A model generated the notes under the pieces. That model ran no database searches and was not told the origin of the DNA. It was given only the letters and a program-made list of their open reading frames with translations. From the IMG/VR virus record IMGVR_UViG_3300009431_000004: a stretch of 64,000 nt of DNA; one strand, written 5' to 3'. Positions 1-19,531 of the stretch are shown here, piece after piece; position 1 is the stretch's first letter; each line of letters begins with the position of its first letter. Both the position numbers and the translations under genes were made by a program. The stretch comes from a virus.

Positions 1-11
1 GTCTTGCCATT

Positions 12-536
12 CCTTCCAATCCCAGAGGGATTAGCAGGAATGGCAAGACGGGAGAGAGATTCTCCATGTCCGGGCGACATCGCCGCTTCCAATCCCAGAG
101 GGATTAGCAGGAATGGCAAGTAGTCCGCCTATTTGTGCCTATGAATGAACGGCCGCTTCCAATCCCAGAGGGATAAGCAGGAACAGAACTCTCTGGCAGG
201 TCCGTGGCCCTCGTGCTTCCAATCCCTAAAGGGATTAGCAGGAATGGCAAGCCCGTTGGCTGGACTATCTCGATGGCTACCGCTTCCAATCCCAAAGGGA
301 TTAGCAGGTATGGAAAGGTGAGGTCGAGACGCAGCACGCCGGACGGCCCTATGCGCTTCCAATCCCAAAGGGATTAGCAGGTATGGAAAGCGCGTCCCTG
401 TCCTCGGACTCACACGCGGCCCGTCCCGCTTCCAATCCCAAAGGGATTAGCAGGTATGGAAAGCCAGAGCCATTGTGTTAGCGGCTTCATGCCGTCCTCC
501 GCTTCCAATCCCAAAGGGATTAGCAGGTATGGAAAG
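12..536 (-). CRISPR. CRISPR array, 8 repeats / 7 spacers; 36-bp repeat CTTTCCATACCTGCTAATCCCTTTGGGATTGGAAGC (minus strand)
   Basis: Repeats at 12-47, 85-120, 155-~183/190 (degenerate), 215-251, 282-317, 355-390, 428-463, 501-536. Spacers mostly 30-37 bp. Internal hairpin AATCCC-N3-GGGATT. Minus-strand 3' end ATTGGAAGC. Perfect repeats lie next to the leader and degenerate ones are distal. Confidence 0.97.
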
Positions 537-679
537 AGCATGGCGTCCAACCATTTGTTTTTATGAAGTTTTCCGGCCCATTTTCGAGAGGTGCCTGTCC
601 CAGCAGTAACAACAGATGAAGTTTTCAAAGAACATCTGGGTTTCCTCAATAATTTCGGCAGGTATAGTGGCGCGAGCGG
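537..679 (-). promoter_or_regulatory. CRISPR leader
   Basis: AT-richer non-coding stretch between the cas5 stop and the first perfect repeat. IHF-like AAACAA-N4-TTG at 548-560; 11-bp direct repeat ATGAAGTTTTC at 563-573 and 616-626. Confidence 0.75.
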
Positions 680-1276
680 TTACGGGGTTTTTGGCATCAC
701 CGCGCTGCTCGAAAACCATGCCTCTTCAGGCGCTTCGGGCTGGCTTGCCGTCAGGTCGAAGTAGCCGTATTGGGGGCGGAGGTTGTGGTATCCCCGTTCG
801 GGGCGGACGATGAGTGGAATAGCTTGTCCGGGGACTATCCATTGGGCCGGTGTCGTGTCCTTTGTCAGGGACCATACTGTGTCGTCGGAGGTCCCCAAGG
901 ACAGAACCCCATAGCGGGGCAGGACTCCTTGCAGGGCTTCCTGCAAGCGGGCCTCGTAGGCCGCGCTCTCGACAAGTACCATGTACTCGACCCCGAACAG
1001 CACCTCCCAGTAACAGGGGCGACTTTTGGGGTCCTTATTACTGGAATGGAAGACCTTATCCTTGCGGAAAATTCGGCCCTCCATCATGGGTTCCCGGACT
1101 CTCCCATAAGCGAAACGCCCGTCAAAAGCTCCCCGTTCATCCCCACACATGGATTCGAGAAAACCGGGGATTTGCGAGGGGTGCGGCACGGGCGCAGTCT
1201 GCCGGACGCTGAACGGAGCGTTCCGTCCGGGGAACCCGTAATGGCCGCGCAAAGCCTCTACATGAAGGTGCAGCAT
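680..1276 (-). CDS. cas5: Cas5 (DevS-like)
   Basis: N-terminal beta strand followed by TAPVPHPSQIPGFLESMCG, RYGVLSLG glycine loop; last gene before the array. Confidence 0.85.
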   Translation of the reverse strand: MLHLHVEALRGHYGFPGRNAPFSVRQTAPVPHPSQIPGFLESMCGDERGAFDGRFAYGRVREPMMEGRIFRKDKVFHSSNKDPKSRPCYWEVLFGVEYMVLVESAAYEARLQEALQGVLPRYGVLSLGTSDDTVWSLTKDTTPAQWIVPGQAIPLIVRPERGYHNLRPQYGYFDLTASQPEAPEEAWFSSSAVMPKTP

Positions 1277-1284
1277 CGTTCACC

Positions 1285-2199
1285 TCACTGAAGCATGGAC
1301 TCCGCTTTGGCCTTGGCGGCCTTCCCGTCCTTGCCCAGCAGAGCCATGGCTTCCGTGAACATCTCCTCGACCGCGTGAGTCAGCGGGACACCTTTTCCGT
1401 CCTTGATTTCCTTGGGGGCATCCTCCGGGCAGGTGAACTGCCCGCACGCACGGAATCCGGTCCCGTGTAGTTCGGCCTGCTTGATGAAGAAGCCGAGGTC
1501 GGGGTCACTCGCCACGTCCTCGGTCAAGTACCCGAGTGGGTTCAACCCCCCGCCGAGGCTCCTGTGTACGTTCCACATGACCACAGCAGGACGCACGAGG
1601 TTTGAGAGGCTCGTCTGGTTCCCGCCTACCGGGAACCCACCTACGATGGCGAGCAGGTAGAGGTAGAGGTGTTCGGGATACTTCTCGAACCCTTCCAGAT
1701 TGAACGGGTAACGCAGCCCGTACCGGGTGACGTGCATCGGATTGTGCGTCGGTACAAGGTCCCCGTCGGCTTTGTGACCGAGCTGCATCAGCCGACTGCC
1801 CACGTATGGCGTCGTTGAAAAGGCAACGGCCTTTTTCACGCCGCCCCGTTGCGTGGTGGAATCGCTGCCCTTGGAAGCCAGCATGAACCCCAGATGGGAG
1901 TCCACGTAGCGGTCAAAGTCGGGGTCCTTTAGCAGGTCTTCGACCTCTGCCAAGGTTTTGTCATCGGGACCGTAGCCGTAGCCCGTGGGGGTGCTGGTGA
2001 CATCGTGATGCCGGAACATCTTGTCAGCACCTACCAGCGCCGTCAGAGCTTCACGCAGGGCGTAGCCTTGGGCGACCCCCGGAAGGATGGAGAACCCGTC
2101 AACGATTTGGATTTCCGCGCCTCCTGTGACGCCCTCTCCTCGGGCGTTGGCATTGGCGACGGGTTCCGTGATAGCACAGAGCGTCAGATTCTTGGCCAT
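1285..2199 (-). CDS. cas7: Cas7 (DevR-like) backbone subunit
   Basis: ANANARGE...GYALREAL N-terminus, HLGFM and GGNQ motifs typical of Cst2/DevR; sits between cas8 and cas5. Confidence 0.85.
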   Translation of the reverse strand: MAKNLTLCAITEPVANANARGEGVTGGAEIQIVDGFSILPGVAQGYALREALTALVGADKMFRHHDVTSTPTGYGYGPDDKTLAEVEDLLKDPDFDRYVDSHLGFMLASKGSDSTTQRGGVKKAVAFSTTPYVGSRLMQLGHKADGDLVPTHNPMHVTRYGLRYPFNLEGFEKYPEHLYLYLLAIVGGFPVGGNQTSLSNLVRPAVVMWNVHRSLGGGLNPLGYLTEDVASDPDLGFFIKQAELHGTGFRACGQFTCPEDAPKEIKDGKGVPLTHAVEEMFTEAMALLGKDGKAAKAKAESMLQ

Positions 2200-2205
2200 G
2201 ATTCA

Positions 2206-3831
2206 TTACTCCTGTTTTGAGTCAGCGGGTTGGTCTTTATCGCTTGAAGGGGTATCCCCTTCCACATCTTCGGGGGGTGCCCCAGCCTCGGCTTCGGGCG
2301 TCTCCTTCTTGTATCGCGTGAAGCAGTACAGCCCCATCAGGTCAGCGGCTTCGTTGGGGCGGTACGCTTCAAGTGCCTCAAGCACGGCGTAGTCGAGCGT
2401 GGTGCCTGTCTCACTGGTCATCCGCCGCAGGGCTTCCTGCAAACGAGACTTAGTGGAGATTTGACGGAGATATACCTTTGCAATATAGGCCCGCGCTTCG
2501 TCCAGCACGCCCCACCACTCATTTTTCATGGCCTTTTTCTGCGCGGGAGTTCGCCCCTTCCGCTCCCATTCACGATTGGCCCTGTTTCGGACACAGTTCC
2601 AGACGAATGCGTGGATTTGCTTCTCCATGGTATCTCCCATTGTTGCGATTATGGTCAGCGGCTCCCGCATCCATCGAAGCTGTTGGGGTTCGAGCATGGA
2701 GAGCGCCCCAAGGCCGTGAAACCACGGCCTGTGGTTGATTGTGTTCCTCAGCACTTGGTCATAAATGCTGATTGCGTTGTTTATCTTCCCGTTCTCGCTG
2801 TGTAATATTCGGAGGGGAGCGTTGCGGAGGACGAAGACTTTGCCCTTGACGCTCTCCGCCTTGCAGGCCCGAAGGAAGGCATTGGCGAGGGTCTTGCGCT
2901 CTTTACTGTAGGCCAACACCCCCGTCCCGAAAGACGCGCCTCCTTCATAGAAGTGGCTGATATAGGAATAGGAACGTCCTTTAGGGAGTTCGAGGAAACG
3001 GGCCATCATCAGGGCCGCCACCTCGACGGTAGCCCCTACAGAATACAGAAAAGGAACCTCGTGGTCCTTCGCCGCCCTGTAACGGTCAAACGCCTCCATG
3101 AACCCCTTGAAAGACCCTGCATCCGGGACAAGCCCGGTAATTCCGTTCGTGTGCCGCACCCCCAGATGTGCGTATTGGTTGCAGTGGAGCAGGAGCAATC
3201 TGCTCTTGAACTCCTGCTGCCCTTCGGCATCCTTGGGGAGGCCCGCAAACCCAAAGTGCCACGCTTGCCATTTCGGGTGGGCGCTGGGAAGTTTGTTCAG
3301 CGACAACGGCTCAACGGGTTCCCCTGCCTTGTCTAGGGGCAGCCACGGTTTGGTGTTGATGGTTAGGGGCGTCCCGTCTCTCTTCGGCAGGAATCCCCAT
3401 GTTGTTTTCAGGGAATACCCCGAAGGGATAATCTTCTGGGATTTTGCGTCTGCAAAAGAGTAGGCTCGGCGGGTTTTCGTCTTCTTTGGCGGCAGGAAGA
3501 CCATGGTCTGTGTCTGGTGTGCTATCGCAGTGGCATAGATGCCGGGGTGGTTCGGTTCGTCGGTGTATCCGGGGGGGACAATCAGACCATCCCGCATGTG
3601 GCCCCAACCATGGGAGACGAACTTTCGGATGGATAGTTCCGGCCCCCAGATGGATATGGTGTCCTTGTCCTCGTCGAATTCCCATGATACGTCCGCAGGC
3701 ACATCAGGGTAACGGTGGCAGAACTTGGGGTCGCGCATGAACTTGCAGGCGAGGTACAGCCCATAGATGCCTGCCCGGAAGTCTGGGTCCATCTCTTGGC
3801 GCAGGTCGTAATGGAAATGTAGTTCCTTCAT
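2206..3831 (-). CDS. cas8: Cas8 large subunit (Cas8a1/Cmx8-like), divergent
   Basis: N-terminal LHFHYDL...FRAGIYGL resembles Cmx8; size and position fit; start overlaps the cas3 stop. Confidence 0.7.
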   Translation of the reverse strand: MKELHFHYDLRQEMDPDFRAGIYGLYLACKFMRDPKFCHRYPDVPADVSWEFDEDKDTISIWGPELSIRKFVSHGWGHMRDGLIVPPGYTDEPNHPGIYATAIAHQTQTMVFLPPKKTKTRRAYSFADAKSQKIIPSGYSLKTTWGFLPKRDGTPLTINTKPWLPLDKAGEPVEPLSLNKLPSAHPKWQAWHFGFAGLPKDAEGQQEFKSRLLLLHCNQYAHLGVRHTNGITGLVPDAGSFKGFMEAFDRYRAAKDHEVPFLYSVGATVEVAALMMARFLELPKGRSYSYISHFYEGGASFGTGVLAYSKERKTLANAFLRACKAESVKGKVFVLRNAPLRILHSENGKINNAISIYDQVLRNTINHRPWFHGLGALSMLEPQQLRWMREPLTIIATMGDTMEKQIHAFVWNCVRNRANREWERKGRTPAQKKAMKNEWWGVLDEARAYIAKVYLRQISTKSRLQEALRRMTSETGTTLDYAVLEALEAYRPNEAADLMGLYCFTRYKKETPEAEAGAPPEDVEGDTPSSDKDQPADSKQE

Positions 3832-6266
3832 GGCTCCTTTACGCTAATCGAGAGCTGTTTAGCCCCCCCTTTGTCGAAAAAAGGCGTGCTGTCCTTGACA
3901 GGTACGATAATTCCGAGTCGTGCATCATCCTCGAACGGCGCGATGTACCTGAGCTTGTAGCGTTCGCACGCGGCAACGGTGCCGAAATGCACGTTGAACT
4001 CAAACCGCTGTAATCCGGGTGTCCGTTCTGCCTTGTATGCCTGCTTGGCCGCCCCCAAGTCCGAAGCCAGAATCGCTGTGGCCATGTTGTCAATGCCCCG
4101 AAGGGGATACCGGACAGTGACCCTCGCTTGGTTCAGATTCTTTGAGATGGGGTCGCCGGGGAACATTCTGTTGAAGATTTCGTTAAGCTCCGCCTGTGAC
4201 CAGTCCCGAGGCTGGCAGAGTTCCTCGAAGAAGGGGTCCGCCTGCCCTAGACCCTCCCTGTAGGGGAGGGTACTTACCGGGTCATAGATGTAAATGTCCA
4301 CAATCTTATCGGGAGTCCTTCCCCGCAAAGTTGCCCGTCCGATGCGTTGGAGTGCATCTGCGGGGGGACACTTCTCCATGATGAGCCTTCCGGCAGATAT
4401 GTCGATACCCAATTCCGCTATCTGGGTTGTGACACACCGTACTGGCTTCTTGCCGCTGCGGAACGCCGCGACCACCTTCTTGTGCTGCTCCACCCGCTTC
4501 TCGTATTGCCTCCGGGAATGATGGACAAGAGCATCCCCGAAACGGCGGCCCACGTCTTGCGCGTTCCGCACAATGTTGACGTACCAGAGGGTCCGGGCTT
4601 CCGCGTCAAAAAGGGACATCGCCGTGGGGATGTCCACCTTATGGAAACGGAACCTCTTGCAGTAGGCAAGGTCCCCTTTCTGATTGCGGATGACGGTCAG
4701 TTTCCGGTGTTTTTCAATCCCTGTTATCTGGGTCTTGGTCGCGGTAGCGGACGAGAACACATACGGGAGGTCGAACCACGCCACGAATCTGTGGAAGTAC
4801 GATGAGAGGCGAGGGTCGTAACTGTGAAATTCATCAAATATTATGCGGGATTTCAGGATAAGGGGCAGGAGCAGGATACTCCTTCTGTTGTAGGCCAGCA
4901 GCCCAAGAACTTGGTCAACAGTACAGAAAGTCGTGGGAGCCTTGTAGTCCTTGAGATACTGAAGCCCCTTTGCAAAGGATTCGCTTTCGCCCTCGCCACT
5001 GTCCCCGTCATCTTCTTGGGTAGGCCACAAGATATGGTCCAAGGCGGACCGGGACGAACGCAAGGTGTCCCCCTCGGTTCCCGTGTCTTTGCGGAGTTGT
5101 GCTGCCAAGTTGGTTGTGGGGGTGGTGAACAGTACCCTGCCATCTATCTTGAGAGTCTTGGGGTCTGCCAGAGCCAACAGGTCGGAGACTGTTTTGCCAT
5201 CTCCCGTAGCCCCTAGATTTGCGACATTCCCTTGGGCTTTCAGGGCTTTCTTTTGGGTAGGGAAGAGATGCCCCAGATGCTTGTTCACCTGTTCGTTCTG
5301 GGTCAGGTCTATGGAGATTTCCCCGAGGACATCCGTGACCTCTTGCAAGAGGCAGTCCTTGAAGTGGTCGTAGCCTCCCTTGAAGTCACTGTCAGGGACC
5401 ATAGAACCCCACCAGTCGGCAGTCATCAAGAGGACCTTCACGGCGAAGGTCAGTGGGGTTTCCGGTTCATCCCATGTCCGGGTCAGGTCATCGTAGTCCT
5501 TCAGGAGGACGGACAGCCGCCATTTGGTGACTCCATCCGGTCTGTAGGGAGGATTCGGGAACGCGGCGGTGTCCAACCCTTCTTGGCGAATGATGCTGCT
5601 TATTTCTTCCCGTATATGGGTCAGGTAGAGGTAGACTGTTTCGGCTTTGGTGTCTTCGGGGTCGGGGTTTTCATCTCGTATGTTTTCGAGGACATCCTCC
5701 CGGACTGATTTATGAGTTTGCCGATGGTGGCCCACGACGGCAAACAGCACTGCCTTGGCATTTCGCTCCCCTCCTGCCTCATGGATAAGCCAGTCCCAGA
5801 GGGGCCGGGAGCCATCCTTCTTGGTGTACGCGATGAGCCACCCCGAGAGCGCCTCATGCCGGTATCGCTGGTTGAACCGAGCAGCCCGGAGCCGCTTGTT
5901 CATCTCGTCATGGTCTGTAACGCCTTCTTTGAGGGCAGGCTGATAGGCTTCCTCCAATACTCGCAGCATGTAAGTGAAGTCCTGCGCGGCCTTGCCCATG
6001 TCGTGAAGGAGCGCCGCCACAACGATAAGTTTGCGGAATTGACGAAAAGCGATGGGAAGGTGCATGACCTTGTGTAATTGATGCCCGATGCCTCCGGGGG
6101 ACATTAGAGCCTTCGCCATTTTCACGACTTCGTGGGTGTGTTCTCTGAAGGTGTAGCCTCGGGCAAACTCCCACTGGTCCGGGGGCACCTTCCGGTCCTC
6201 CACCCGCCATTTGGCAAGCATGTGGGGCGGGTAGCCTCTTTCGAGGATATGTTGGCTGGCTTTCAT
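3828..6266 (-). CDS. cas3: Cas3 HD nuclease-SF2 helicase
   Basis: HD motifs LLHDMGKA, RHEALS, GHH; helicase motifs TGDGKT, DEFH, SAT, TQIAELGIDIS, QRIGR. True start at 6266 (ATGA overlap with the cas6 stop). Confidence 0.95.
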   Translation of the reverse strand: MKASQHILERGYPPHMLAKWRVEDRKVPPDQWEFARGYTFREHTHEVVKMAKALMSPGGIGHQLHKVMHLPIAFRQFRKLIVVAALLHDMGKAAQDFTYMLRVLEEAYQPALKEGVTDHDEMNKRLRAARFNQRYRHEALSGWLIAYTKKDGSRPLWDWLIHEAGGERNAKAVLFAVVGHHRQTHKSVREDVLENIRDENPDPEDTKAETVYLYLTHIREEISSIIRQEGLDTAAFPNPPYRPDGVTKWRLSVLLKDYDDLTRTWDEPETPLTFAVKVLLMTADWWGSMVPDSDFKGGYDHFKDCLLQEVTDVLGEISIDLTQNEQVNKHLGHLFPTQKKALKAQGNVANLGATGDGKTVSDLLALADPKTLKIDGRVLFTTPTTNLAAQLRKDTGTEGDTLRSSRSALDHILWPTQEDDGDSGEGESESFAKGLQYLKDYKAPTTFCTVDQVLGLLAYNRRSILLLPLILKSRIIFDEFHSYDPRLSSYFHRFVAWFDLPYVFSSATATKTQITGIEKHRKLTVIRNQKGDLAYCKRFRFHKVDIPTAMSLFDAEARTLWYVNIVRNAQDVGRRFGDALVHHSRRQYEKRVEQHKKVVAAFRSGKKPVRCVTTQIAELGIDISAGRLIMEKCPPADALQRIGRATLRGRTPDKIVDIYIYDPVSTLPYREGLGQADPFFEELCQPRDWSQAELNEIFNRMFPGDPISKNLNQARVTVRYPLRGIDNMATAILASDLGAAKQAYKAERTPGLQRFEFNVHFGTVAACERYKLRYIAPFEDDARLGIIVPVKDSTPFFDKGGAKQLSISVKEP

Positions 6267-6829
6267 TTCCGATTTCCGGGGTAAAAGACGCCGCAACCGA
6301 AACTGGTGAACTTTCCGATGCCTCGTTCCTGAATCTTCAGCGAATCTTCGGAGGGCAGCCCCGTCAGCACAACAGAATGTCCCAGATAATGACGGTTCTT
6401 GAAAGCGATGCTCCGGGTCTTCCCGATGTTGACAGAGACGCCCTCGGGGATGACCTCTCGCAGAGCCAACAGAAACTCCTTTTGTTGAATCTTGTCGGCA
6501 AAGATGGTCAATCGGGAAACCAGACGAGAGGCAGGAAACAACTCCTTTGGGCGGGTAGGGCCGACCCATAGGACGGAACCCATCAATGAGAGGCCATTCC
6601 CCTGAATCTCGATTGCTTCTTCTGCGGTAATCCCTCGTATGTGCAAGAGGGATTTGTCATCCAGCTTGATTCTGTCCAGCACTCGTGTTCCCCGCACAGG
6701 GGCTATCTGTAGATGGGGTCGGCCATGCAGGGAGGGGAACTTCCTGCTGAGTGCCGAATAGATGAGGTATCCGGCGTCCTGTTCTAAGGTTCTGCCGGGG
6801 AATCGAAGGGGAAACTCGTAAGCAGTCAT
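6263..6829 (-). CDS. cas6: Cas6 (Cmx6, MYXAN type)
   Basis: DAGYLIYSALS N-terminus and C-terminal EDSLKIQERGIGKFTSFGCGVFYP glycine loop; GGAG RBS before the ATG at 6829. Confidence 0.92.
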   Translation of the reverse strand: MTAYEFPLRFPGRTLEQDAGYLIYSALSRKFPSLHGRPHLQIAPVRGTRVLDRIKLDDKSLLHIRGITAEEAIEIQGNGLSLMGSVLWVGPTRPKELFPASRLVSRLTIFADKIQQKEFLLALREVIPEGVSVNIGKTRSIAFKNRHYLGHSVVLTGLPSEDSLKIQERGIGKFTSFGCGVFYPGNRK

Positions 6830-6861
6830 TGTTTTTCTCCGAATCAACTTTCCATCAAGTA

Positions 6862-6890
6862 TTACTCCAAAGAGGTCATTGTCAGCCCCC
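6862..6890 (-). promoter_or_regulatory. Variant of the recurrent phage promoter (GGGGGCTGAC-N13-GAGTAA) upstream of the cas operon
   Basis: Same 13-bp spacing as the other copies; 33 bp upstream of cas6. Confidence 0.6.
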
Positions 6891-6923
6891 TAGATTTCGG
6901 GCTTTTGTTGAAGGGGCCAACTA

Positions 6924-7193
6924 TTATTCTTCTGTGATTCTGACGATGGAGCCGATAATGCGGTTGATGGCGGCCTGCGCCCGTTTTCTTGCTCCGAACA
7001 TGGCTTCTTCGGCTGTGCGCCCGTAGGCCAGCAGGGACGAGGTTTCCATGAGCAGGGGACGCCCAGCGTCCGTGGTGTAGCGGATGAAGCCCTTGCCGAT
7101 GGACTTCCAGCTCCCGGTACGCTGCTCCTCGGCAGTCGTGTAGTCAATCCAGTGGACGAGCCGGTCCTTCTTCACCTTGTCAGTCTTGGGCAT
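6924..7193 (-). CDS. hypothetical protein
   Basis: ORF in a tightly packed minus-strand run. Confidence 0.6.
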   Translation of the reverse strand: MPKTDKVKKDRLVHWIDYTTAEEQRTGSWKSIGKGFIRYTTDAGRPLLMETSSLLAYGRTAEEAMFGARKRAQAAINRIIGSIVRITEE

Positions 7194-7548
7194 CGGGCGT
7201 CTTCGCGTTGAGGACTTGGCTGTAGATGTCGCCGGGCATTACTTCGTCTTCCCCGAAACAGGAGAACTCGATGAGGAACTGGCGACGCAACCTCCACTTG
7301 CCGTTGAGGATGCGGACGATGCCAGCGAGGCCGGTCCGGCGACACACGGGATGGTCCTCGGAGTCAGACATGCCATCGGGAATCTGGACGGGCAGCGGTG
7401 TTGTGGCGTAGACGGTGATACATCTCGCGCCTCTTTCGGCCATGCCACGGGCGGCCCATCCGGCCCCCGACTTGGATGTTTCCGCCTTGTACTCCTCGGG
7501 ACCGTCCGGCCCGAAGGCACCTTCGACCTCGTAGATGAAGCGACTCAT
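7180..7548 (-). CDS. hypothetical protein
   Basis: ATG at 7548 overlaps the upstream stop codon. Confidence 0.55.
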   Translation of the reverse strand: MSRFIYEVEGAFGPDGPEEYKAETSKSGAGWAARGMAERGARCITVYATTPLPVQIPDGMSDSEDHPVCRRTGLAGIVRILNGKWRLRRQFLIEFSCFGEDEVMPGDIYSQVLNAKTPDAQD

Positions 7549-8519
7549 TCCAGCACCTCTCTGGTCCACCCATCCTCGGTCATGCGCTCCCGCAGTCGTT
7601 CGCGGCTGTCCGCTGCGAACGACTGCCAGAACTGGTGGATGCCTTCATCCCAATGCTTCGCCACGCTGTCCCTGATGAGCTTGTCCAGCACCTTGGGCTT
7701 CAGGGCGTCCAGCTCCCATGCGTCCATGATGCCATGCTCCTTGCGGTATCCCGCGTAGCGGGACGACGTGAGCTTGGCCGGGAACGGCGGGGGCTTGTAC
7801 TTCAGGATTTGGTCCATGTTCAGGGCGACACGCTCGAACCGGATGGGCGGGATGTCCAGCCCGTGGATTCGGGCAAAGATGTTGAGGGTTTCCTCGGCGG
7901 ACCGGGGTATCTGCCAGCCGTCCGGGTCGTGGTCCCCGAAGTAGAGGACGACGGCCTCGTCGATGACCTCCGGTTCTTCCTCGCGCCCCTCTTCGTCCAC
8001 GATGGGGTCTGCTGCGGCCTCTACGGCCTTTTCCAGACGTTTGAGCCACTGCCAGAGGGCGGAGTGGCTCGGGTATCCCTTGCACGCGAAGAAGCCCACT
8101 CCGAGGTCTGAACAGGGCTTGTCGAATACGCCCGAGAGAGCTTCCTTCTCGACCCACACGGAGACGTGGGACCGCTGGCCGAACCAGCGGTCGATGGTGA
8201 TGGCCCAGTGCGGGATGGCCCGGATGTACCTTCTGGCCTCGCCCTCAGCGTCGTCCACGTCTGTCTTGACCTCGTTCTGGGCGCTCGCCCCGGCTTCGCG
8301 GCCACGGTCCACGATGAGGTCCATCTCGAAGTCGCCTTCGAGGCGGGCGTTCCCCAGCACGTCGCCCAGCCGCTTGTAGCTGTTTTGGCTGTTGGGGATG
8401 AGGCCCTCCGACACGAGGGCGTAGTAGAGCTGCCGGAGGGTCAGGCTGTAGCCGTCGTCCCGGTACTGCTCCGCCATCGCGGTGGCTTCGTCCAGTAGGT
8501 CACTGCGGGTCAGGTCCAT
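7545..8519 (-). CDS. Topoisomerase VI-A/Spo11-like winged-helix + TOPRIM protein
   Basis: TLRQLYY, VWVEKEAL, KGYPS and YFGDHDPDG (DxD) motifs. Confidence 0.75.
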   Translation of the reverse strand: MDLTRSDLLDEATAMAEQYRDDGYSLTLRQLYYALVSEGLIPNSQNSYKRLGDVLGNARLEGDFEMDLIVDRGREAGASAQNEVKTDVDDAEGEARRYIRAIPHWAITIDRWFGQRSHVSVWVEKEALSGVFDKPCSDLGVGFFACKGYPSHSALWQWLKRLEKAVEAAADPIVDEEGREEEPEVIDEAVVLYFGDHDPDGWQIPRSAEETLNIFARIHGLDIPPIRFERVALNMDQILKYKPPPFPAKLTSSRYAGYRKEHGIMDAWELDALKPKVLDKLIRDSVAKHWDEGIHQFWQSFAADSRERLRERMTEDGWTREVLE

Positions 8520-8531
8520 CTCATCTCCTCC

Positions 8532-9323
8532 CTAGAGCCATGAGGGCTTGTCCTTCAAGGCTTCCTCCCAATAGTGGAAGGTGGTCGCCCACGGCTCGGG
8601 AACCTCGTCGGACTTGAGGTCATAACGCTCCATCACCCTGTACTTGCACCAGCGATGGAAGGACTCGGCCTTGAGCTTCACCCCGGCCAGCGTCAGGCAC
8701 CGGATGACCCGCGTGATGCGGAGCAGGTTGTGGTTGCCGGGGTGAATCCAATCGGTGTCCCGCAGGAAAGTCTCGAAGCGGCCCACGTTCCAGCTCAATT
8801 TGGCCGACAGGCTGGTGTCAGCCTTGATGGCCTCGAAGTCCTCGGGCGTCGCCACCGGGGCTTGCGGGTGCATCTTGCTGGGTTCCGGGAGTGGAAAGAG
8901 CCACTGGACTGCGGAATGGCATTTCTCCCATGCCTCGTTGGGCCACCCGAGAGCTTCGTCCCGCGTGAATCCCTCCTCGGGGTGTTTTGCGCCCCGGAAG
9001 AATCCGATGATGGTGGTCGGCTCCTGTTCCTGCTCCTCGATGAGCTTGCGGAGTTCGGCGGCCCGGTCGGTGTGGTACTTGATGGAATCCTCTGACCGCT
9101 TGACCTGCGCCCGGAGATAGTCCAGCGGGGGCGTGTCCACGCGCTCGACATCGGTCTGGCGGTACTTGTCCGACCAATTGAACTCCTCGCCCAGCTCCCG
9201 CGCTCTCTCCTGCGCCCACTCTTTCCATTCGTCCTCGGAAGCCAGCAGCACGTCGTCGTAGGCCCAATTCGCCCATCCGTGGGCGAACATGGAGCGGTAG
9301 CGGTAGAAGATGCGAACACTCAT
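8532..9323 (-). CDS. OGFr-N-like domain protein
   Basis: WEKCHSAVQWLFPLPEPS..HPQAP and NHNLLRITRVIRCL motifs. Confidence 0.7.
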   Translation of the reverse strand: MSVRIFYRYRSMFAHGWANWAYDDVLLASEDEWKEWAQERARELGEEFNWSDKYRQTDVERVDTPPLDYLRAQVKRSEDSIKYHTDRAAELRKLIEEQEQEPTTIIGFFRGAKHPEEGFTRDEALGWPNEAWEKCHSAVQWLFPLPEPSKMHPQAPVATPEDFEAIKADTSLSAKLSWNVGRFETFLRDTDWIHPGNHNLLRITRVIRCLTLAGVKLKAESFHRWCKYRVMERYDLKSDEVPEPWATTFHYWEEALKDKPSWL

Positions 9324-9324
9324 G

Positions 9325-9609
9325 CTAATACTCCCCTTCAAACATCAAGTCCCTGCGGCATTCCTGCCACAGTCGTATTGCAGACTCCGAACTGAAAGTA
9401 GCGTGGTTCACGCTGGTCGCCAGCGAGTCGATGGATGCGGTGAGCCTCTCGTTGCGCGACCGACACGATTTCAACAGCTCCTCACAGACGTTTGCCCGAA
9501 CCCCCGTGGTCAACAGTTGGTCGGTCCGCCCGTCCTCGTACCCGAGCCACCTACCGAGGGCGACTCCTACCAGCAGGGCCAGCAGTGCTATGAGTATGGT
9601 CCTGCTCAC
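9325..9609 (-). CDS. small membrane-anchored protein
   Basis: N-terminal hydrophobic helix followed by a coiled region. Confidence 0.55.
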   Translation of the reverse strand: MSRTILIALLALLVGVALGRWLGYEDGRTDQLLTTGVRANVCEELLKSCRSRNERLTASIDSLATSVNHATFSSESAIRLWQECRRDLMFEGEY

Positions 9610-11576
9610 AGCCCCGCCAGTGTCTTTGCCTCGTCCTCGCTGATGACCTTGGTGCCGTACTGGCGGGCCTTCACGGCCTTGCCGGACTGGCTGTTCGGGT
9701 CAGCCGCGATGAGGTAGGTCAGGGTCTTGGAGACGCTGGACTTCTCGGTCGCGCCCTGCTTCTCCAAGGCTTCGCTCAGGTCCGCGTTGCGGAAGCCGGT
9801 CAGGCAAAAGGTCTGCCCGACAAGCGGCCCGGTCGCGGTCTGCACCGTGATTTTCGCCTCGCTGACCAGCTTGGCGATGAGGCCCAACCGGGCGAGGTAT
9901 CCGTCCACGAAGCTCTGGGCCTTGGTCTGGCCGACTCCGGGGATTTTCGCCACGTCCGCGACATACGCCTGTGACATCAGGTGGAGGCTGGTGTATCTGC
10001 CGTCCACAATCATCTTCGCCATGCTCCGCCCGATGAGCGGGATGCCGAGCGCACCCACGAATACGTGGATGGGCAGGGTCTTCTTCTTGTTCAGGTTCGT
10101 GATGGCCTTCACCGCGCTGCCCCCGGCCCGACGACCGTTGATGTCCACGTCCGCCGCCTTGTCCGGGTCCAGCAGGTAGAGGTCCGCGATGTCCGACACC
10201 ATGCCAGCCGCGATGAGGGCTTCGATGAGGGTGTCTCCGACGTGGAGGACACCGATTTTCTTGACCCACCGCTTGATGGCTCCGGCGACTTGCGCGGGGC
10301 AGTCGTCACCCCGGCACACGAGGTACTCACCGTCGCGCACCAGCGGGGTCTGACACTCCGGGCAAACGTCCGGCGGCTTGAACTCGACCGGGCTGCCCGA
10401 GGCCGGTTTCACGATGCTCTCGACGTAGGGAATCACGTCGTTGCGCCGCGCCACGAGGATGGTGTCCCCGTCGCAGGGGTAGGTGCCGATGCCTCCGGCG
10501 TCCCGGACCAGCGACTCCATGTTGCTGATGTTGTGCAGGGACGCCTGTTTCACCTTCGCCATGGCGAACTGCACCATGTCGAATTCCGCGACCGGGGTGA
10601 TTCGCCCGGAGTTGCCGACCTGCCACCGGATGTTGCGGAGGATGGTGGTCAGTTCCTCATGCGGGAACTTGTAGGCGATGGCTCCCTTGGGCCTGTGGTT
10701 CTTCTCCCCGAGGGCATCCCGCTTCAAGGTCGAGTCGGCCTCGACGACGAGGCCGTCGATGGCGTAGTCGAGGGAATCGCGGATGGTGTCCACGTAGTCC
10801 TTGTAGAGGGCTTTCACGCCGCTCTCGGTGGTCAGCACTTGCCAGCGCGGGGTCTGGAACCCCATCCCTTCCAGTCCCTCCATTTCGGCACTCTTGGACG
10901 CCATGCCGCGTCCGCCGGGGAGCAACTGGTAGGACTTGATGGTCAGGAACCGGCACTTGTCCGCGCCGGACTGCCTCTTGCTCGTCCCGGCTGCGGTGTT
11001 GCGGGGGTTGGACTCTCCGACGAAGTGGGCCGCGAAGTCCGACTTGAGGCAGACGACCTCGCCACGCACGAACACGAGGTCCGGGGTGGAGGTGCCGTCC
11101 GGCATCTTCGGCGGGAGCATCTTGACTGCGCCCTTCATCAGGAGGACGTTGCGGGTGATGTCCTCACCTTCCGTGCCGTCCCCACGGGTGAGTCCCTGTA
11201 CCAGCTTGCGCCCCTTGTACTGAAGGCTCAGGCTGATACCGTCCAGCTTGTCCGTGACCATGATGTCGTCGCCGGGCTTGAAGCCGCAGGACTTGAACCA
11301 GTCACCGAGTTCGTCTTCCACGCCGGACTCGTCGTGTTGGGCCTTGTTCAAGGAACCCATGGGGATTTGGTGCTTGACCTTGGGCCACGCGCCACCCGAA
11401 GGAGCCGCGCCGATGTGCGCGAGGGCCGCATGGTTCGGGTCGAGCTTGCGAAGCTCGTCTTCGAGCGCGTCGTACTCGGCGTCCGTGATGACCAATTCGT
11501 CGGACTGGTTGTAATAGGTACGCTTGGCCGCTTCAATTTTGTCGGCCAGTTTCTTGATTGCTTGGGTCTTGTTCAT
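9606..11576 (-). CDS. ligA: NAD+-dependent DNA ligase
   Basis: KLDG adenylation motif, VRGEV, IDGLVV, AIAYKF, OB fold, C4 Zn finger, HhH repeats, C-terminal BRCT (TFCLTG). Confidence 0.96.
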   Translation of the reverse strand: MNKTQAIKKLADKIEAAKRTYYNQSDELVITDAEYDALEDELRKLDPNHAALAHIGAAPSGGAWPKVKHQIPMGSLNKAQHDESGVEDELGDWFKSCGFKPGDDIMVTDKLDGISLSLQYKGRKLVQGLTRGDGTEGEDITRNVLLMKGAVKMLPPKMPDGTSTPDLVFVRGEVVCLKSDFAAHFVGESNPRNTAAGTSKRQSGADKCRFLTIKSYQLLPGGRGMASKSAEMEGLEGMGFQTPRWQVLTTESGVKALYKDYVDTIRDSLDYAIDGLVVEADSTLKRDALGEKNHRPKGAIAYKFPHEELTTILRNIRWQVGNSGRITPVAEFDMVQFAMAKVKQASLHNISNMESLVRDAGGIGTYPCDGDTILVARRNDVIPYVESIVKPASGSPVEFKPPDVCPECQTPLVRDGEYLVCRGDDCPAQVAGAIKRWVKKIGVLHVGDTLIEALIAAGMVSDIADLYLLDPDKAADVDINGRRAGGSAVKAITNLNKKKTLPIHVFVGALGIPLIGRSMAKMIVDGRYTSLHLMSQAYVADVAKIPGVGQTKAQSFVDGYLARLGLIAKLVSEAKITVQTATGPLVGQTFCLTGFRNADLSEALEKQGATEKSSVSKTLTYLIAADPNSQSGKAVKARQYGTKVISEDEAKTLAGL

Positions 11577-11598
11577 CTTCGCCTCCCTTCTGCGTACA

Positions 11599-11627
11599 CT
11601 ACTCTATGGGGACGGTTCTAAGCCCCC
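11599..11627 (-). promoter_or_regulatory. Recurrent phage promoter GGGGGCTTAG-N13-GAGTAG
   Basis: Exact motif upstream of ligA. Confidence 0.7.
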
Positions 11628-11631
11628 TCGG

Positions 11632-12123
11632 TCAGGTGGCGAACCTCTCGTTGATGACTTCGATGTTGACGCCCTTGGCCGCGAAGTGCCTCCGGGCGTG
11701 TTCGGCCAGCGTCGGATTGTAGGCCGTCTTGTAGCGGAGGTACTGCCCCTCCGGGGCGTCGGGGTCACGCAGGACCATCGACTTCTTGCACCACTGCTTC
11801 AGCTTCTTCTCTTCCAGCATGTCGTCAACCATCTGCTGAATGAGCAGGTCGAGGTCCATCGGAAGCTCGCGGGGGTAGTCCGGGGTGGGCGGGAGGGGCG
11901 GGAGGCCCTTCACATAGGCCAGCACTTTCTCACCCACGGGTCCGGGGCGGAAGCGGAAGCCACCGCTTGGGGACCAGTCGATGTTCAGTTCAGCGCCGTT
12001 GCCGCTGTCGCTCACGAGCGCGGCTCGCTTGCCGTCCACGTACAGGGTGCAGGACCACATCTCGCCTTCCATGCCGTGACCGGCACTCCGGTAGTTCTTG
12101 ATTGTCAATTTCGGGTCAGCCAT
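11632..12123 (-). CDS. hypothetical protein
   Basis: GAGGAG RBS; preceded by the promoter motif. Confidence 0.7.
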   Translation of the reverse strand: MADPKLTIKNYRSAGHGMEGEMWSCTLYVDGKRAALVSDSGNGAELNIDWSPSGGFRFRPGPVGEKVLAYVKGLPPLPPTPDYPRELPMDLDLLIQQMVDDMLEEKKLKQWCKKSMVLRDPDAPEGQYLRYKTAYNPTLAEHARRHFAAKGVNIEVINERFAT

Positions 12124-12151
12124 CGTCGTTCTCCTCAATGTCCTGCCCTCT

Positions 12152-12249
12152 CAACTCGCGGATTTCAGTCCTAAGCCCCTCTTTCCTTTAGTAGTGGCCG
12201 CGCATCCCAAGATTCTGGGAGGGGGCTTAGGACCGCGCCGAGCGAGTAG
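12152..12249. promoter_or_regulatory. Back-to-back pair of recurrent promoters (12152-12180 minus; 12221-12249 plus)
   Basis: GGGGCTTAG-N13-GAGTTG leftward and GGGGGCTTAG-N13-GAGTAG rightward, between divergent genes. Confidence 0.7.
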
Positions 12250-12277
12250 AGACAGCAGGACACGAAGGAGACGTGAC

Positions 12278-13675
12278 ATGGACGAGCGTATGAACATCAT
12301 CTGCCAGCAGGCAGCCACCTGTGGTGCTTGCGGCAAGACCATTCACAAGGACGAGGATGCGGTCTGGATTCGTATGTCGGCCAAGACGACCGAGAGGCCG
12401 GGCATCTACCACCCCCACTGCACTTCGGCCCCCGACGCGACCCCGCACATCCCCGTGAAGGAGACGAAGGTACTCACGGCGATGGCGGACGCCTTCGACA
12501 AGCCGGAAGTCAAGGCTCACGCGACGGCGCTGCAAGAGGCCGTCACCAAGCTGTGGGAGGAGGGGCATGTGCGGTTGTCCATCGGGGTCAACGGCGACCA
12601 GCACAAGACGCATCCCGATGGGGTCAGCTTCGGCTTCTACACATGGTCGAAGCACGGCTACTTCGAGAACGGCCTCGGCCACGAAATGCCCACCCGCGAC
12701 AGCCTCGCCCATGCGTGGCAGCTCGTCGAAGACATGCTTCCGAGTTGCAGGTGGAAGCACAAGCCCCCGTCCCCCGTATCGTTCCTCCGGGGGAAGCTGG
12801 CCGAACACACCAAGGCACTCGTGGAGGCGATTCAGCCCCTTGTCAAAGGCACGGCCTACCGGGTGGTCGTCTGCATCACCTCCGAGGACCTTCACAGGGC
12901 TTTCGGGGTCCAAGTATTCGGGATGTCCATGACGAACCACTACCCGGACGCGGGGCGGGTCTTGGGAGAGGCCGTCCGTAACCATCTGCGGAGCATGGAA
13001 GACAGTGCTGTCCTAGCGCAACGGGCCGAAAGGGACCGGGCGCAGTACCAGCAACGGGAGGCTGAGGCCAGACGGGACCGGGAGACGGTGGAGAAGTTCA
13101 TCGCCGCGCTCCGTCCCGGCGACCTCTGGAAGCTCGACAAGGGGCTTCTCGGCATCATCGTCGGTCCGGGGTGCGGTGGCGTCCGCGTGCTGAAGCTCGA
13201 CGGCGACATCCAGCACATCGCCATCAAGGCCAACAAGCTGCCCTACGACCGCATCATCAAGGTGCCGGACTTCATCCGGTCGCACATCGTGGAACTGGCC
13301 CCGAAACTGGCCGAAGCCGGAGCCAAGAACAAGCTGTTCCAAGCCCTCAAGGCCGCCCGGAAGGGCGTCGAAGTCATCGTCGGCCCGTACATCTTCTCGG
13401 TCCGCAAGGCCAATGACCTCGACACGATACGACCGAGGGGTGACGTATTCACCATCTTCGGGGAAGCTCACGAACAGGTTGTCCAGCGCAACCTGCGTGA
13501 AATCATGCGTGACCTCGGATGCGACGGGTACTACGACCCCTACATCCGCGCCTTCAGCCACGGGATAGGGCCGGGACCGGCCCCCAAGGAAGGCAACGGC
13601 GGGACTTCCGTCGAGGGTCTGCTGGACTTCCTGCCCGAGAGCATCAGGAAGCACATCAAGCGCATGGGCCTTTGA
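12278..13675 (+). CDS. hypothetical protein with N-terminal CxxC-x26-HxxC (PARP-type-like) zinc finger
   Basis: AAGGAG RBS before the ATG at 12278; TCGACGKTIHK...YHPHC. Confidence 0.65.
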   Translation: MDERMNIICQQAATCGACGKTIHKDEDAVWIRMSAKTTERPGIYHPHCTSAPDATPHIPVKETKVLTAMADAFDKPEVKAHATALQEAVTKLWEEGHVRLSIGVNGDQHKTHPDGVSFGFYTWSKHGYFENGLGHEMPTRDSLAHAWQLVEDMLPSCRWKHKPPSPVSFLRGKLAEHTKALVEAIQPLVKGTAYRVVVCITSEDLHRAFGVQVFGMSMTNHYPDAGRVLGEAVRNHLRSMEDSAVLAQRAERDRAQYQQREAEARRDRETVEKFIAALRPGDLWKLDKGLLGIIVGPGCGGVRVLKLDGDIQHIAIKANKLPYDRIIKVPDFIRSHIVELAPKLAEAGAKNKLFQALKAARKGVEVIVGPYIFSVRKANDLDTIRPRGDVFTIFGEAHEQVVQRNLREIMRDLGCDGYYDPYIRAFSHGIGPGPAPKEGNGGTSVEGLLDFLPESIRKHIKRMGL

Positions 13676-13704
13676 GGGGGCTTAGGAGCGGCTCAATAGA
13701 GTAG
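13676..13704 (+). promoter_or_regulatory. Recurrent phage promoter upstream of PARP
   Basis: GGGGGCTTAG-N13-GAGTAG. Confidence 0.7.
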
Positions 13705-13732
13705 AGGATACAGGCGTAGGAGGAATCACCCG

Positions 13733-15373
13733 ATGGCCACGAAACTCGGACGAAAAGAGATGCCTGCCGGACTCTCGGCGGATGACTTCAAGTACATGGG
13801 ACGCCCCGCGAACGACCAAGGCGACTTCGGCTCGGACGTGGGCATCGCGGACATGGGCTGCGTCAACCAGTTCGGTGAAGCGAACAACGCCAAGTATTAC
13901 CACGCTGGCGTGGTACAGGGCAGCGGTCGCTGGTTCGTCTACCTCGAATGGGGCCGCATGAAGGCCGCGAAGTCGTGGAACGGCGGGTTCGGCGGCGGTG
14001 ACTTCCAGTTCGTCGAATGCACCGGAGAGGGCGACGCCCGTGACTTCTTCGCCAAGCAGTGCGGCAGCAAGAACGTCAAGCGGCTCATCCAGCAGACCAT
14101 CGCCGGGAAGCTCATCTGGACGGCCAAGAAGGGCAAGGACGGATACCTCGTCCAGCGCCTCGCCACCCGTGAGAAGGGTCTGCCGGATGCCTATACCATC
14201 AAGGACGACTCGGGTGTCACCAAGACGGCGGCTCCCAAGGCCGCCCCCAAGGCGAAGAAAGCGGCCAAGCCCTCGCGCACCTTCCAGCCCGAGGTCGCGT
14301 CGCTGGCCGCAGCCCTCGTGGGCGGGACCAAGACCTACGCCCGGTCGCTCTCGGCGGCTTCGGGCATCACCCCGACCATGGACACCATCAACGAGGTTCG
14401 GGACGACATCATCCCGGCGGCTCTGGACCGCATCAAGACGGTCGGCAATGACGTTCACCGTCAGGTCGAGGACGGCGACCTCATCGCCCTGTCGAAGCTG
14501 GTCGCGGCCCTCGTCCCCCGGCCCATCCCTCGGGGCGGGCAGGACGCCACGGAGGCCATCCTGAGCGCCAACAACATCCTCGTCCTTCAGCAGGACTTGG
14601 ATGCCTTTGAGGCCGCGTTGGGCAACGAGGACTTCTCCACCGCCACGAAGGCTCCCGACGTGGACCCGGACAGCCTGCTCAACGCGAAGCTGACGTGGCT
14701 CGACCCTCGCGGCGATGCCGCGTGGCTGGCGTCGGCGTTCACACAGATGTCCAACAACCGTCACGGATACCTCGGACGTGGGTCCGCCCGTGTGAAGCAC
14801 ATCTTCATGGTGGAGCGGCCCGACCGGGACGCCCCGTTCATGGCCAAGGTCGCGGCGGTCGGCTCCAAGCGCAAGGGCCGGTTCGGCCTCAAGGCGAACC
14901 TTCAGCCCCGGCGCAAGGACTTGAACGCGCAGGAGGCCGACCTGTTCGCACAGGCCAACGTCATCATGGCCATCCACGGCACGCGCCCGGTCAACATCGC
15001 CCCCATCTTGGGCGACAACTTCCGGCTCCCCCGGAGCCTCCCCGGAGCGCAAATCACCGGAGCCAACTTCGGTCACGGCGTCTACTTCGCAACCGACTGG
15101 CGCAAGTCCTACGGCTACACGGGCCGGGGCTACTACGGCGGCGGGGGCGGAGTGGCCAACCGGGGCTGCTTCATGTTCCTCTGCGACATGGTGATGGGCA
15201 ATGCCTACCGCGCTCCCTCGACCGGCTCGTGGGGTTCCCCTCCGGGCGACACGGACAGCGTGTTCGGCGTGGGCGGCGACAGAGGCCACCGGCTCGAAAA
15301 TGACGAGCATGTCATCTTCGACCCCCACTACCAGCGCATCCGCTACATCATCGAGTTCGACTGGCTGAACTAG
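13733..15373 (+). CDS. Poly(ADP-ribose) polymerase-like protein (WGR + helical regulatory + ART catalytic domains)
   Basis: KYY...EWGR (WGR); LSKLVAALVPR helical domain; IHGTRPVN, GANFGHGVYFA..KSYGY, FLCDMVMG, NDEHVIFD...RYIIEF with an intact H-Y-E triad. Confidence 0.9.
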   Translation: MATKLGRKEMPAGLSADDFKYMGRPANDQGDFGSDVGIADMGCVNQFGEANNAKYYHAGVVQGSGRWFVYLEWGRMKAAKSWNGGFGGGDFQFVECTGEGDARDFFAKQCGSKNVKRLIQQTIAGKLIWTAKKGKDGYLVQRLATREKGLPDAYTIKDDSGVTKTAAPKAAPKAKKAAKPSRTFQPEVASLAAALVGGTKTYARSLSAASGITPTMDTINEVRDDIIPAALDRIKTVGNDVHRQVEDGDLIALSKLVAALVPRPIPRGGQDATEAILSANNILVLQQDLDAFEAALGNEDFSTATKAPDVDPDSLLNAKLTWLDPRGDAAWLASAFTQMSNNRHGYLGRGSARVKHIFMVERPDRDAPFMAKVAAVGSKRKGRFGLKANLQPRRKDLNAQEADLFAQANVIMAIHGTRPVNIAPILGDNFRLPRSLPGAQITGANFGHGVYFATDWRKSYGYTGRGYYGGGGGVANRGCFMFLCDMVMGNAYRAPSTGSWGSPPGDTDSVFGVGGDRGHRLENDEHVIFDPHYQRIRYIIEFDWLN

Positions 15374-15397
15374 GTCGGTCAGAGGGTAGAGTGACCC

Positions 15398-16345: not shown

Positions 16346-16356
16346 GAGGTCCCGAC

Positions 16357-16899
16357 ATGGACACCATTTTTCTTGTTGCATGTGCGTTGACGATTCTGGG
16401 CGGTCTGGTGGGCCTGACCACGGTGGGCTGGTCGGTCCGCAAGGACACCGCCGTTACCGGGACATACCTCGTCCCGGTCTACAAGTGGGCGTCCGTCCGG
16501 CACATCATCACCGGGGGCCTCCTGACTGCTCAGTTCATGACCGGGATTCTGGGGGCGGTCGCTGCGTTCGTGCATGGGGGTCCGATGCCCATTGCGGCCT
16601 ACATCTGCGTCCTGAGCATGATTGCTGTAGGGACGCTTGGCTCCATCGCTCTCAACTACCTGTGGAACAGGCACGACGCCGGGTGGGTTCCGCTCATCGT
16701 GACCGCGACGGCCAATATGTACTGCACGGCCTGTGGTCAGCGGATAAACACCAGTCGGAAGCTCGGAGGCTGGTGCGCGTCGTGCGGAGCCGGACCCGAC
16801 GAGGAGTGTGACCCCAAGAAGCACCTGCGGCGCGAGAAATCCGGGGATGACAGGCCCGCCCGGACGCGCAACAAGGGTGCGAAGCGGAGGCGGAAGTGA
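16357..16899 (+). CDS. membrane protein with C-terminal Zn-ribbon motifs
   Basis: About 3 TM helices followed by CxxC...CxxC. Confidence 0.6.
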   Translation: MDTIFLVACALTILGGLVGLTTVGWSVRKDTAVTGTYLVPVYKWASVRHIITGGLLTAQFMTGILGAVAAFVHGGPMPIAAYICVLSMIAVGTLGSIALNYLWNRHDAGWVPLIVTATANMYCTACGQRINTSRKLGGWCASCGAGPDEECDPKKHLRREKSGDDRPARTRNKGAKRRRK

Positions 16900-17827: not shown

Positions 17828-17832
17828 AGTAG
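17804..17832 (+). promoter_or_regulatory. Recurrent phage promoter
   Basis: GGGGGCTTAG-N13-GAGTAG. Confidence 0.7.
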
Positions 17833-17895
17833 AGAGTATGTAAGGCTCCGATTGACGGGGCCTCTGGTCAACCCATATAGGGTGAGGAGAAACCC

Positions 17896-18705: not shown

Positions 18706-18716
18706 GGAGGAACCCC

Positions 18717-19085: not shown

Positions 19086-19089
19086 CCTT

Positions 19090-19485: not shown

Positions 19486-19531
19486 AGCTTCTACCTAGCC
19501 CCGTCCTCTCCGTGATTCGAGTAATGGGGGC

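Follow-up and report, generated by a model that had tools for sequence, protein, structure and literature searches.

The type I-B CRISPR-Cas loci of myxobacteria, MxI-B, have the gene order cas6, cas3-cas8-cas7-cas5, followed by genes for a Cas4-Cas1 fusion and Cas2 (PMC11237760), and the I-B system of Synechocystis represented by the structure 8H67 belongs to the "Myxan" subdivision (PMC11096372). Almost all CRISPR systems of huge phages lack Cas1, Cas2, and Cas4 (Al-Shayeb et al. 2020, PMC7162821; reviewed in PMC11656645). According to Seed et al. 2013, as cited in PMC11656645, the Vibrio phage ICP1 carries a type I-F system with cas1 and cas2-3, acquires spacers itself, and targets PLE. Here we describe a CRISPR-Cas locus located on the minus strand at positions 13–6892 of a 64,000-nucleotide stretch of DNA, referred to as the window, from the IMG/VR virus record IMGVR_UViG_3300009431_000004. 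Very likely, the locus represents an intact type I-B interference module of the MYXAN (MxI-B) kind that lacks adaptation genes and belongs to a large marine phage.

The locus works like, and descends from, systems of the I-B/MYXAN kind. The features it shares with the Myxococcus dev locus and the system of Synechocystis sp. PCC 6714 (PDB 8H67 and 8IP0) are the order cas6-cas3-cas8-cas7-cas5, repeats of 36 nt, a Cmx6-type Cas6, a DevR-type Cas7, a DevT/Cas8b-type predicted fold of Cas8, and a predicted internal start in cas8 for the production of Cas11. The gene order equals that of MxI-B up to cas5 (PMC11237760), as claimed in an original prediction made from the sequence alone, which had compared it to the MYXAN/dev subtype. 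However, the locus is very probably phage-borne, and its leader and array occupy the place after cas5 where MxI-B loci have cas4/cas1-cas2. Its proteins have also diverged: Cas7 and Cas8 lie beyond the Pfam, NCBIfam, and PADLOC models, Cas5 and Cas6 score under the NCBIfam MYXAN cutoffs, and none of 185,579 reference genomes contains a close relative.

The locus resembles the adaptation-less systems of huge phages in being very probably phage-borne, in combining effector genes with an array, in that no Cas1, Cas2, or Cas4 was found, and in its intact catalytic residues; one of its relatives is located on a 375-kb contig. In contrast, the type I example described from huge phages is an I-C variant that lacks Cas6 and has another helicase in place of Cas3, and huge-phage arrays have a median of six repeats (PMC7162821), whereas the system described here is a full I-B/MYXAN module with Cas6 and Cas3 and an array of 15 spacers. 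The system of ICP1 is likewise phage-encoded, of type I, equipped with Cas3, and used against another genetic element, but it belongs to subtype I-F, contains cas1 and cas2-3, gains its own spacers, and has a known target, PLE. CRISPR-associated transposons (CASTs) lack Cas3 and are paired with Tn7 transposase genes. The Cascade of a type I-B CAST (PmcCAST, PDB 8FCJ) provides the best structural match of the phage Cas8 and a profile match of its Cas7, and this CAST also lacks adaptation genes and resides on a mobile element. However, the phage locus has an intact Cas3. TnsA, TnsB, TnsC, and TniQ were not seen beside the operon, and there was no transposase family among the PADLOC and PHROG matches listed.

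The interference module

A promoter-like site, cas6, cas3, cas8, cas7, cas5, the leader, and the CRISPR array follow each other in this order (Table 1). All five cas genes and the array are intact and collinear, and the five open reading frames (ORFs) are identical or differ by one residue in five contigs from five metagenome samples. The original prediction had described the same gene order and an interference-complete I-B (MYXAN) system, and every part that it named is present; the system looks complete for interference and is a type I-B system of the MYXAN kind with the MYXAN gene order.

Cas6 matches the family PF09559 with 100.4 bits (E-value 1.6e-28, gathering score 26.7) and the PADLOC Cas6 model with an E-value of 1.1e-30. 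The best NCBIfam model for Cas6 is TIGR02807, cas6_cmx6 of I-MYXAN, with 89.6 bits and thus under the cutoff of 98.85. The ATG of cas3 overlaps the stop codon of cas6 (ATGA). A longer cas3 ORF of 913 aa was rejected as an over-extension, which reaches 300 nt backwards into cas6 in a different reading frame.

Cas3 contains the Pfam domains Cas3_HD (PF18019, 4.9e-13) and Cas3-like_C_2 (PF22590, 4.1e-12), and its best PADLOC model is Cas3b (1.8e-85). The HD, GHH, GxGKT, DEFH, SAT, and QRIGR motifs are invariant across six lineages, in which Cas3 sequences share 32–53% identity. The invariant positions include the HD residues H88, D89, H137, H180, H181, and D284, the Walker A residues G355, G357, and K358, the motif II residues D478, E479, and H481, and motifs III and VI. 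Cas3 is identical in the sister contigs. The nuclease and helicase motifs of Cas3 are therefore intact, as initially proposed.

Cas5 was identified by its match to PADLOC Cas5b (1.7e-12). The best NCBIfam model, TIGR02586 DevS, is matched with an E-value of 5.4e-6 and 26.2 bits, far under the cutoff of 111.5. The protein is 34–64% identical to the product of the gene following cas7 in all related loci. The public gene call of cas5 has a shorter start.

Neither Cas7 nor Cas8 matches models from Pfam, NCBIfam, or PADLOC (at E-value limits of 0.01–1 for Cas8), in agreement with the previous description of the two proteins as strongly diverged. An exhaustive phmmer search of 1.84 billion representatives identified only 56 relatives of Cas7. 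A profile built from 36 Cas7 relatives matches the Cas7 chains of I-B Cascades, 8h67_E with an E-value of 2.3e-22 and 8fcj_C with 1.2e-12, and 17 of the 36 relatives match the Pfam family DevR (PF01905). Judged by these profile matches, the 304-aa protein is a diverged DevR-type Cas7.

Cas8 was returned only as itself in a word-index sequence search, even with alignment, and its profile had no meaningful match among the PDB sequences. Its homologues were taken from the equivalent position in the related operons, and five of them were aligned. The AlphaFold (AF2) model of Cas8 is of moderate quality (pLDDT 61.8, pTM 0.64), with residues 75–220 poorly modelled. The best structural matches of this model are Cas8 chains from I-B Cascades, followed by Cas8 of I-C. 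A comparison using VIA-align provided Z-scores of 14.9 for 8fcj_I (335 residues, root-mean-square deviation 5.0) and 7.0 for 8ip0_J, and Foldseek identified 8fcj_I, 8h67_L, and 8ip0_J with E-values of 1.1e-6, 1.5e-4, and 8.9e-4. The nearest cluster in the ESM Atlas is "type I-MYXAN Cas8a1/Cmx1", which contains DevT_N and DevT_C domains (feature score 0.96; TM 0.64/0.67 over residues 3–532). As judged from its profile, Cas7 is a type I-B/MYXAN subunit, and by its predicted fold Cas8 is probably another.

The Cas8 residues 399–506 form a helical bundle in the predicted model, which aligns to the separate Cas11b chain 8h67_M with a Z-score of 5.9. Met402, positioned at the start of the bundle, is invariant in all five homologues, and in each of the five genes the sequence GGAG is located 5–7 nt upstream of its ATG. 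Internal translation of Cas11b from cas8b is known for I-B systems (PMC11096372, PMC11899642, bioRxiv 10.1101/2020.04.18.045682). Because the invariant methionine with its GGAG and the Cas11b-like bundle match this known arrangement, the locus probably also encodes the small subunit Cas11.

Table 1 Features of the CRISPR-Cas locus in the window
Feature	Position	Strand	Basis
Promoter-like site before cas6	6856..6892	-	Weight-matrix score
cas6, pre-crRNA endonuclease, Cmx6-like, 188 aa	6829..6263	-	PF09559, TIGR02807, PADLOC Cas6
cas3, HD nuclease fused to SF2 helicase, 812 aa	6266..3828	-	Cas3_HD, Cas3-like_C_2, PADLOC Cas3b
cas8, large subunit, diverged DevT/Cmx-type Cas8b, 541 aa	3831..2206	-	Predicted fold
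Predicted internal cas11 frame, 140 aa, from Met402 of cas8	2628..2206	-	Conserved Met and GGAG
cas7, backbone subunit, diverged DevR family, 304 aa	2199..1285	-	Profile of relatives
cas5, 198 aa	1276..680	-	PADLOC Cas5b, weak TIGR02586 DevS
Leader, 143 nt, AT-richer than flanks	679..537	-	Between cas5 stop and first repeat
CRISPR array, in-window part: 8 repeats of 36 nt, 7 spacers	536..13	-	Read directly; contig end cuts array

CRISPR array, adaptation genes, and related loci

The window begins within the array since its contig does, and the array is truncated at the contig end. Bases 1–12 of the window are the reverse complement of the start of the repeat and mismatch the sister contigs; they are an assembly fold-back artefact at the contig break in the array. 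The full array is contained in the sister contig L001, which has a length of 32,955 bp and is 99.92% identical over 11,856 bp. The array extends over L001:11333–12385, where 15 full repeats and a degenerate repeat at the end are combined with 15 spacers of 25–40 nt. The count of seven spacers in the original prediction is thus correct for the window but covers only a part of the array.

New repeats are copies of the leader-proximal repeat. The orientation of the array was assigned because its repeats decay away from the leader. The four repeats closest to the leader share one sequence, which deviates from the older consensus at three positions, and the three spacers between the copies of this younger variant are each exactly 37 nt long. 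Therefore, three or more spacers were gained once the repeat had changed. Since those additions, the array has only decayed or lost units. In the array of a second sample, spacer 9 is followed directly by the last spacer and spacers 10–14 are absent (L002:10780–10851 compared with L001:11952–12340). This difference reflects either a true deletion variant of the population or a collapse of the array during assembly. The repeat folds as an 8-bp hairpin near its 3' end (−10.3 kcal/mol, single fold), and the repeats of related lineages form a hairpin at the same place from different bases. An alternative stem given by RNAalifold for six repeats was poorly supported and the hairpins were misaligned; single folds were used instead.

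The original prediction had proposed a comparison of the spacers to viral and host DNA to obtain targets and the protospacer-adjacent motif (PAM), and no protospacer was found for any spacer tried. When the 15 spacers were compared by blastn-short with the window, with L001 and L006, and with every related locus, only the arrays themselves were returned, and the whole array had no match in phage and plasmid collections searched in distant mode. Exact cores of 24–32 nt from spacers 1, 2, 3/7, 6, 10, and 14 are absent from viral contigs. Spacer 1 was not found in metagenome contigs, a collection without the samples of this phage, as its own array contigs were not returned. The repeat core was not found in genome, viral, or metagenome contigs, nor was a host array with the same repeat.

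The state of the array raises the possibility that the locus is decaying and has lost its interference activity. The distal repeats with many point changes and one insertion, the variable lengths of the spacers, the array lacking five spacers in one sample, and the missing targets agree with decay. However, the five ORFs are intact and nearly invariant across the five samples, catalytic and structural residues are conserved across lineages that are merely 30–55% identical, the predicted internal start of Cas11 is conserved, and the four leader-proximal repeats are perfect. Decay to a non-functional state is accordingly improbable.

Genes for adaptation were searched for on both sides of the operon. 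In the part of the window from 6.9 to 64 kb, 131 ORFs match 35 PADLOC families, and Cas1, Cas2, and Cas4 are not among the 25 families listed, which are methyltransferases and a few others; the ten families not listed rank below an E-value of 1.3e-5. On the other side, beyond the array, contigs L001 and L006 provide 16.5 kb of small co-oriented ORFs, which start behind a perfect copy of a motif that recurs in this phage (near position 12560 of L001). This region contains no Cas1, Cas2, or Cas4 and has no matches in precomputed Pfam annotation, and ten ORFs selected by size from L006 have no PADLOC match. The original prediction stated that cas1/2/4 are missing between the flanking genes, and that finding cas1/cas2 just outside the window would speak against it. 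The absence now extends over 57 kb on one side and 16.5 kb on the other. The lack of cas1/2 from many huge-phage systems, which the prediction had stated, agrees with the published survey (PMC7162821).

It is conceivable that the system is complete after all, with cas4/cas1 and cas2 at another position of the phage genome, separate from the effector operon. Approximately 100 kb of the contig lie outside the search, and the three uniform 37-nt spacers between the four younger identical repeats show that spacers were added after the repeat change. However, besides the negative results on both sides of the operon, adaptation genes were not seen beside any of the eight related loci, including four with sequence available past the array, and the canonical adaptation genes of MxI-B directly follow cas5 (PMC11237760). 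A distant set of adaptation genes is therefore considered unlikely.

The same five genes and an array were found in eight further metagenomic lineages. Relatives of Cas7 with 30–46% sequence identity are encoded in five-gene operons of the same order, followed by an array, and homology extends to all five proteins. Repeats and spacers differ from lineage to lineage. There is no cas1, cas2, or cas4 in view at any of the nine lineages, and several kilobases beyond the array are available for four of them. Two of the relatives, located on contigs of 375 kb and 39 kb, were read from gene tables only and have the same layout. Their neighbours are genes of phage type, which encode a T7-like endonuclease I, PARP, a DUF2460 protein of 1,860 aa, and a methyltransferase; deoxynucleoside kinase and exonucleases are encoded near other related loci. 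On the contig of one relative, a gene matching Pfam PARP is located 3 kb beyond the array, and PARP-like genes may recur near these CRISPR loci. In the window, a candidate for a eukaryote-like PARP (ORF 13682–15598 on the minus strand, read as 638 aa) matches no Pfam family at an E-value of 1e-4.

A scan of the 185,579 reference genomes with a Cas3 alignment identified nothing closer than approximately 25% identity, and only one locus matched a second Cas protein. Cas3 has no relative in viral contigs or, by tblastn, in isolated phages. The operon is a member of a small and diverged family, which has been observed exclusively on DNA resembling that of phages. It is possible, although tentative, that these loci represent a deep-branching I-MYXAN-like clade of at least nine lineages, which is confined to phages and mobile elements and has permanently shed its adaptation genes while its arrays still turn over. 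If so, spacers would be gained in trans from Cas4/Cas1-Cas2 of the host, or arrays would be exchanged between phages.

Phage context and promoter motif

The contig that contains the window is 170,835 bp long, and L001 adds 21 kb beyond its end, so the genome is probably 190 kb or longer. The matches of the window to PHROG families include endolysin (two families), endonuclease VII, HNH endonucleases, thymidylate kinase (Tmk), thymidine kinase (Tk), Prs, the NAD ligase LigA (6e-139), and a DNA methyltransferase. A 324-aa topoisomerase-like or DNA-binding protein (7545–8519, minus strand), encoded three genes upstream of cas6, matches phrog_6247 with an E-value of 3.4e-73. It has homologues with 35–38% identity in 84 phage records from many hosts, and no Pfam match. 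Many ORFs in the window are ORFans, and the window contains no tRNA or Rfam match. DNA sequencing runs that match the phage are two marine metagenomes (shares of 0.22 and 0.06), and no RNA run is listed.

The element is very probably a phage because of the endolysin, endonuclease VII, HNH endonucleases, nucleotide kinases, topoisomerase-like gene, ORFans, and a motif present in 14 copies. Alternatively, the element could be a plasmid, another mobile element, or a chromosomal island, and the locus an ordinary orphan effector locus. The window lacks genes for capsid, portal, terminase, and tail proteins, it also encodes a histidine kinase, glycosyltransferases, and methyltransferases, and the relative L016 is located near an ArdC-like gene, which is typical of conjugative elements. 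However, a non-phage origin is made very unlikely by the phage-typical genes listed above, the genome-specific motif, and the predominance of ORFans. Housekeeping, tRNA, and rRNA genes were not found. The original prediction had named origin of the contig from a bacterial chromosome as a result that would speak against it.

Several other genes of the ORFs at positions 6900–64000 have PADLOC matches: a SduA/DUF4263 nuclease domain (6e-9), a viperin-like radical SAM protein (4.7e-7), mad2 (two ORFs, 2.5e-9), PDC-S48 (1.6e-13), and a type II methyltransferase (4.1e-79). Judged by these matches, the phage may carry defence-like or counter-defence genes.

The GC content is 0.56–0.58 over positions 1–8000 of the window and 0.63–0.66 over positions 8001–20000, and the cas operon is thus less GC-rich than its neighbours, as first reported. 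A second stretch with a lower GC content (0.54–0.58 against a background of 0.62–0.65) is located at positions 20000–30200. It encodes a 1,225-aa multi-glycosyltransferase, other GT2 genes, and a radical-SAM/methyltransferase fusion.

The recurrent motif has the form GGGGCTTAG-N13-GAGT(A/T)G and is present in 14 copies between positions 11618 and 57684 of the window, compared to 0.37 expected. Examples are located at 11629 (minus strand), 12219 (plus), 13674 (plus), 45552 (plus), and 55333 (minus). The spacing between GGGGCTTAG and GAGT(A/T)G is always 13 nt, except for one copy with 14 nt. Most copies are positioned 20–45 nt before a ribosome-binding site and start codon, and several form divergent pairs. 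The motif probably serves as a promoter for a transcription factor or sigma factor specific to the phage. Genes downstream of the array in two lineages, L006:14842–15753 (plus strand) and the gene directly following the array in the relative on the 375-kb contig, have weak similarity to sigma factors (phrog_351, 1.3e-4; Sigma70_r4_2 faint). These sigma-like genes could be related to the phage-specific motif.

The 95-nt gap before cas6 contains GGGGCTGAC-N13-GAGTAA, which agrees with GGGGCTTAG-N13-GAGTAG in 12 of 15 core positions and has the exact spacing. The site scores 10.1 bits with a weight matrix derived from the 14 motif copies. Apart from the canonical GGGGCTTAG copies and their overlaps on the reverse strand, no other site in the window scores as well, and approximately 0.17 sites as good are expected per shuffled window. 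A variant of the phage promoter upstream of cas6 had been noted before, and such a variant is present; however, the same bases can be read as a sigma-70-like promoter, CTGACA-16-AATACT (6885..6858). From its promoter-like bases, the operon may be read by the host polymerase, by the reader of the phage motif, or by both.

Proposed function and significance

By analogy to other members of the family, the array would be transcribed from the leader, and Cas6 would cut the precursor CRISPR RNA (pre-crRNA) at the repeat hairpin. Cas8, several copies of Cas11 from the internal start in cas8, a filament of Cas7, Cas5, and Cas6 would then assemble into Cascade on the mature crRNA. The complex would bind matching double-stranded DNA flanked by a PAM and recruit the HD-helicase Cas3, which would degrade the target.

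Because the cas4/cas1-cas2 block is missing after cas5, the phage cannot add spacers with the genes of this locus. It must rely on inherited spacers, array recombination, or Cas1-Cas2 acting in trans. During infection, the module would most likely be used for cutting competing phages, other mobile elements, or host defence elements. This use is suggested by analogy to ICP1 and huge phages (PMC11656645, PMC7162821); the original prediction had reached the same proposal of a weapon, which the spacer searches did not substantiate.

A different function would be that of a regulator that represses host or phage genes, such as those for host development, in the manner of DevTRS and not as a nuclease. 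The proteins DevT, DevR, and DevS of Myxococcus xanthus autoregulate the dev promoter, limiting DevI, but many natural isolates lack this link (PMC6061681). In the absence of Cas3, Cascade is able to act as a transcriptional repressor. However, Cas3 of the phage locus is intact and conserved, and no spacer matches the phage's own DNA in the window, L001, or L006. Interference with host development, considered in the original prediction, was rejected, since the DevTRS link is strain-specific autoregulation of the dev promoter and nothing ties the marine phage to a myxobacterial host. A mainly regulatory role is very improbable.

Several observations weigh against an intact, adaptation-less interference module on a phage. 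The search for Cas1, Cas2, and Cas4 covered 57 kb and 16.5 kb, with approximately 100 kb of the 170.8-kb contig outside it. The older half of the array is decayed, with point changes and one insertion in the repeats and spacers of 25–40 nt. No protospacer, and hence no target or PAM, was found for any spacer tried. The window contains no virion structural gene. Cas7 and Cas8 fit no curated family model, and Cas5 and Cas6 fall under the MYXAN cutoffs of NCBIfam.

Adaptation-less CRISPR-Cas systems of large phages are already known, and the locus described here adds to them a full I-B (MYXAN-like) module bearing Cas6 and Cas3. The new aspects are the subtype and its completeness, with Cas6, Cas3, and a predicted internal Cas11, the size of the array, and the membership of the locus in a diverged family on phage-like DNA. 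Until targets are found, the locus says nothing new about the use of such systems. The family is coherent and is missed by the standard models of Cas7 and Cas8; therefore, such loci are probably undercounted in viral surveys. The five genes and the predicted internal cas11 constitute a compact set for reconstitution, and the locus provides a natural case for studying how phage arrays gain spacers without Cas1-Cas2.

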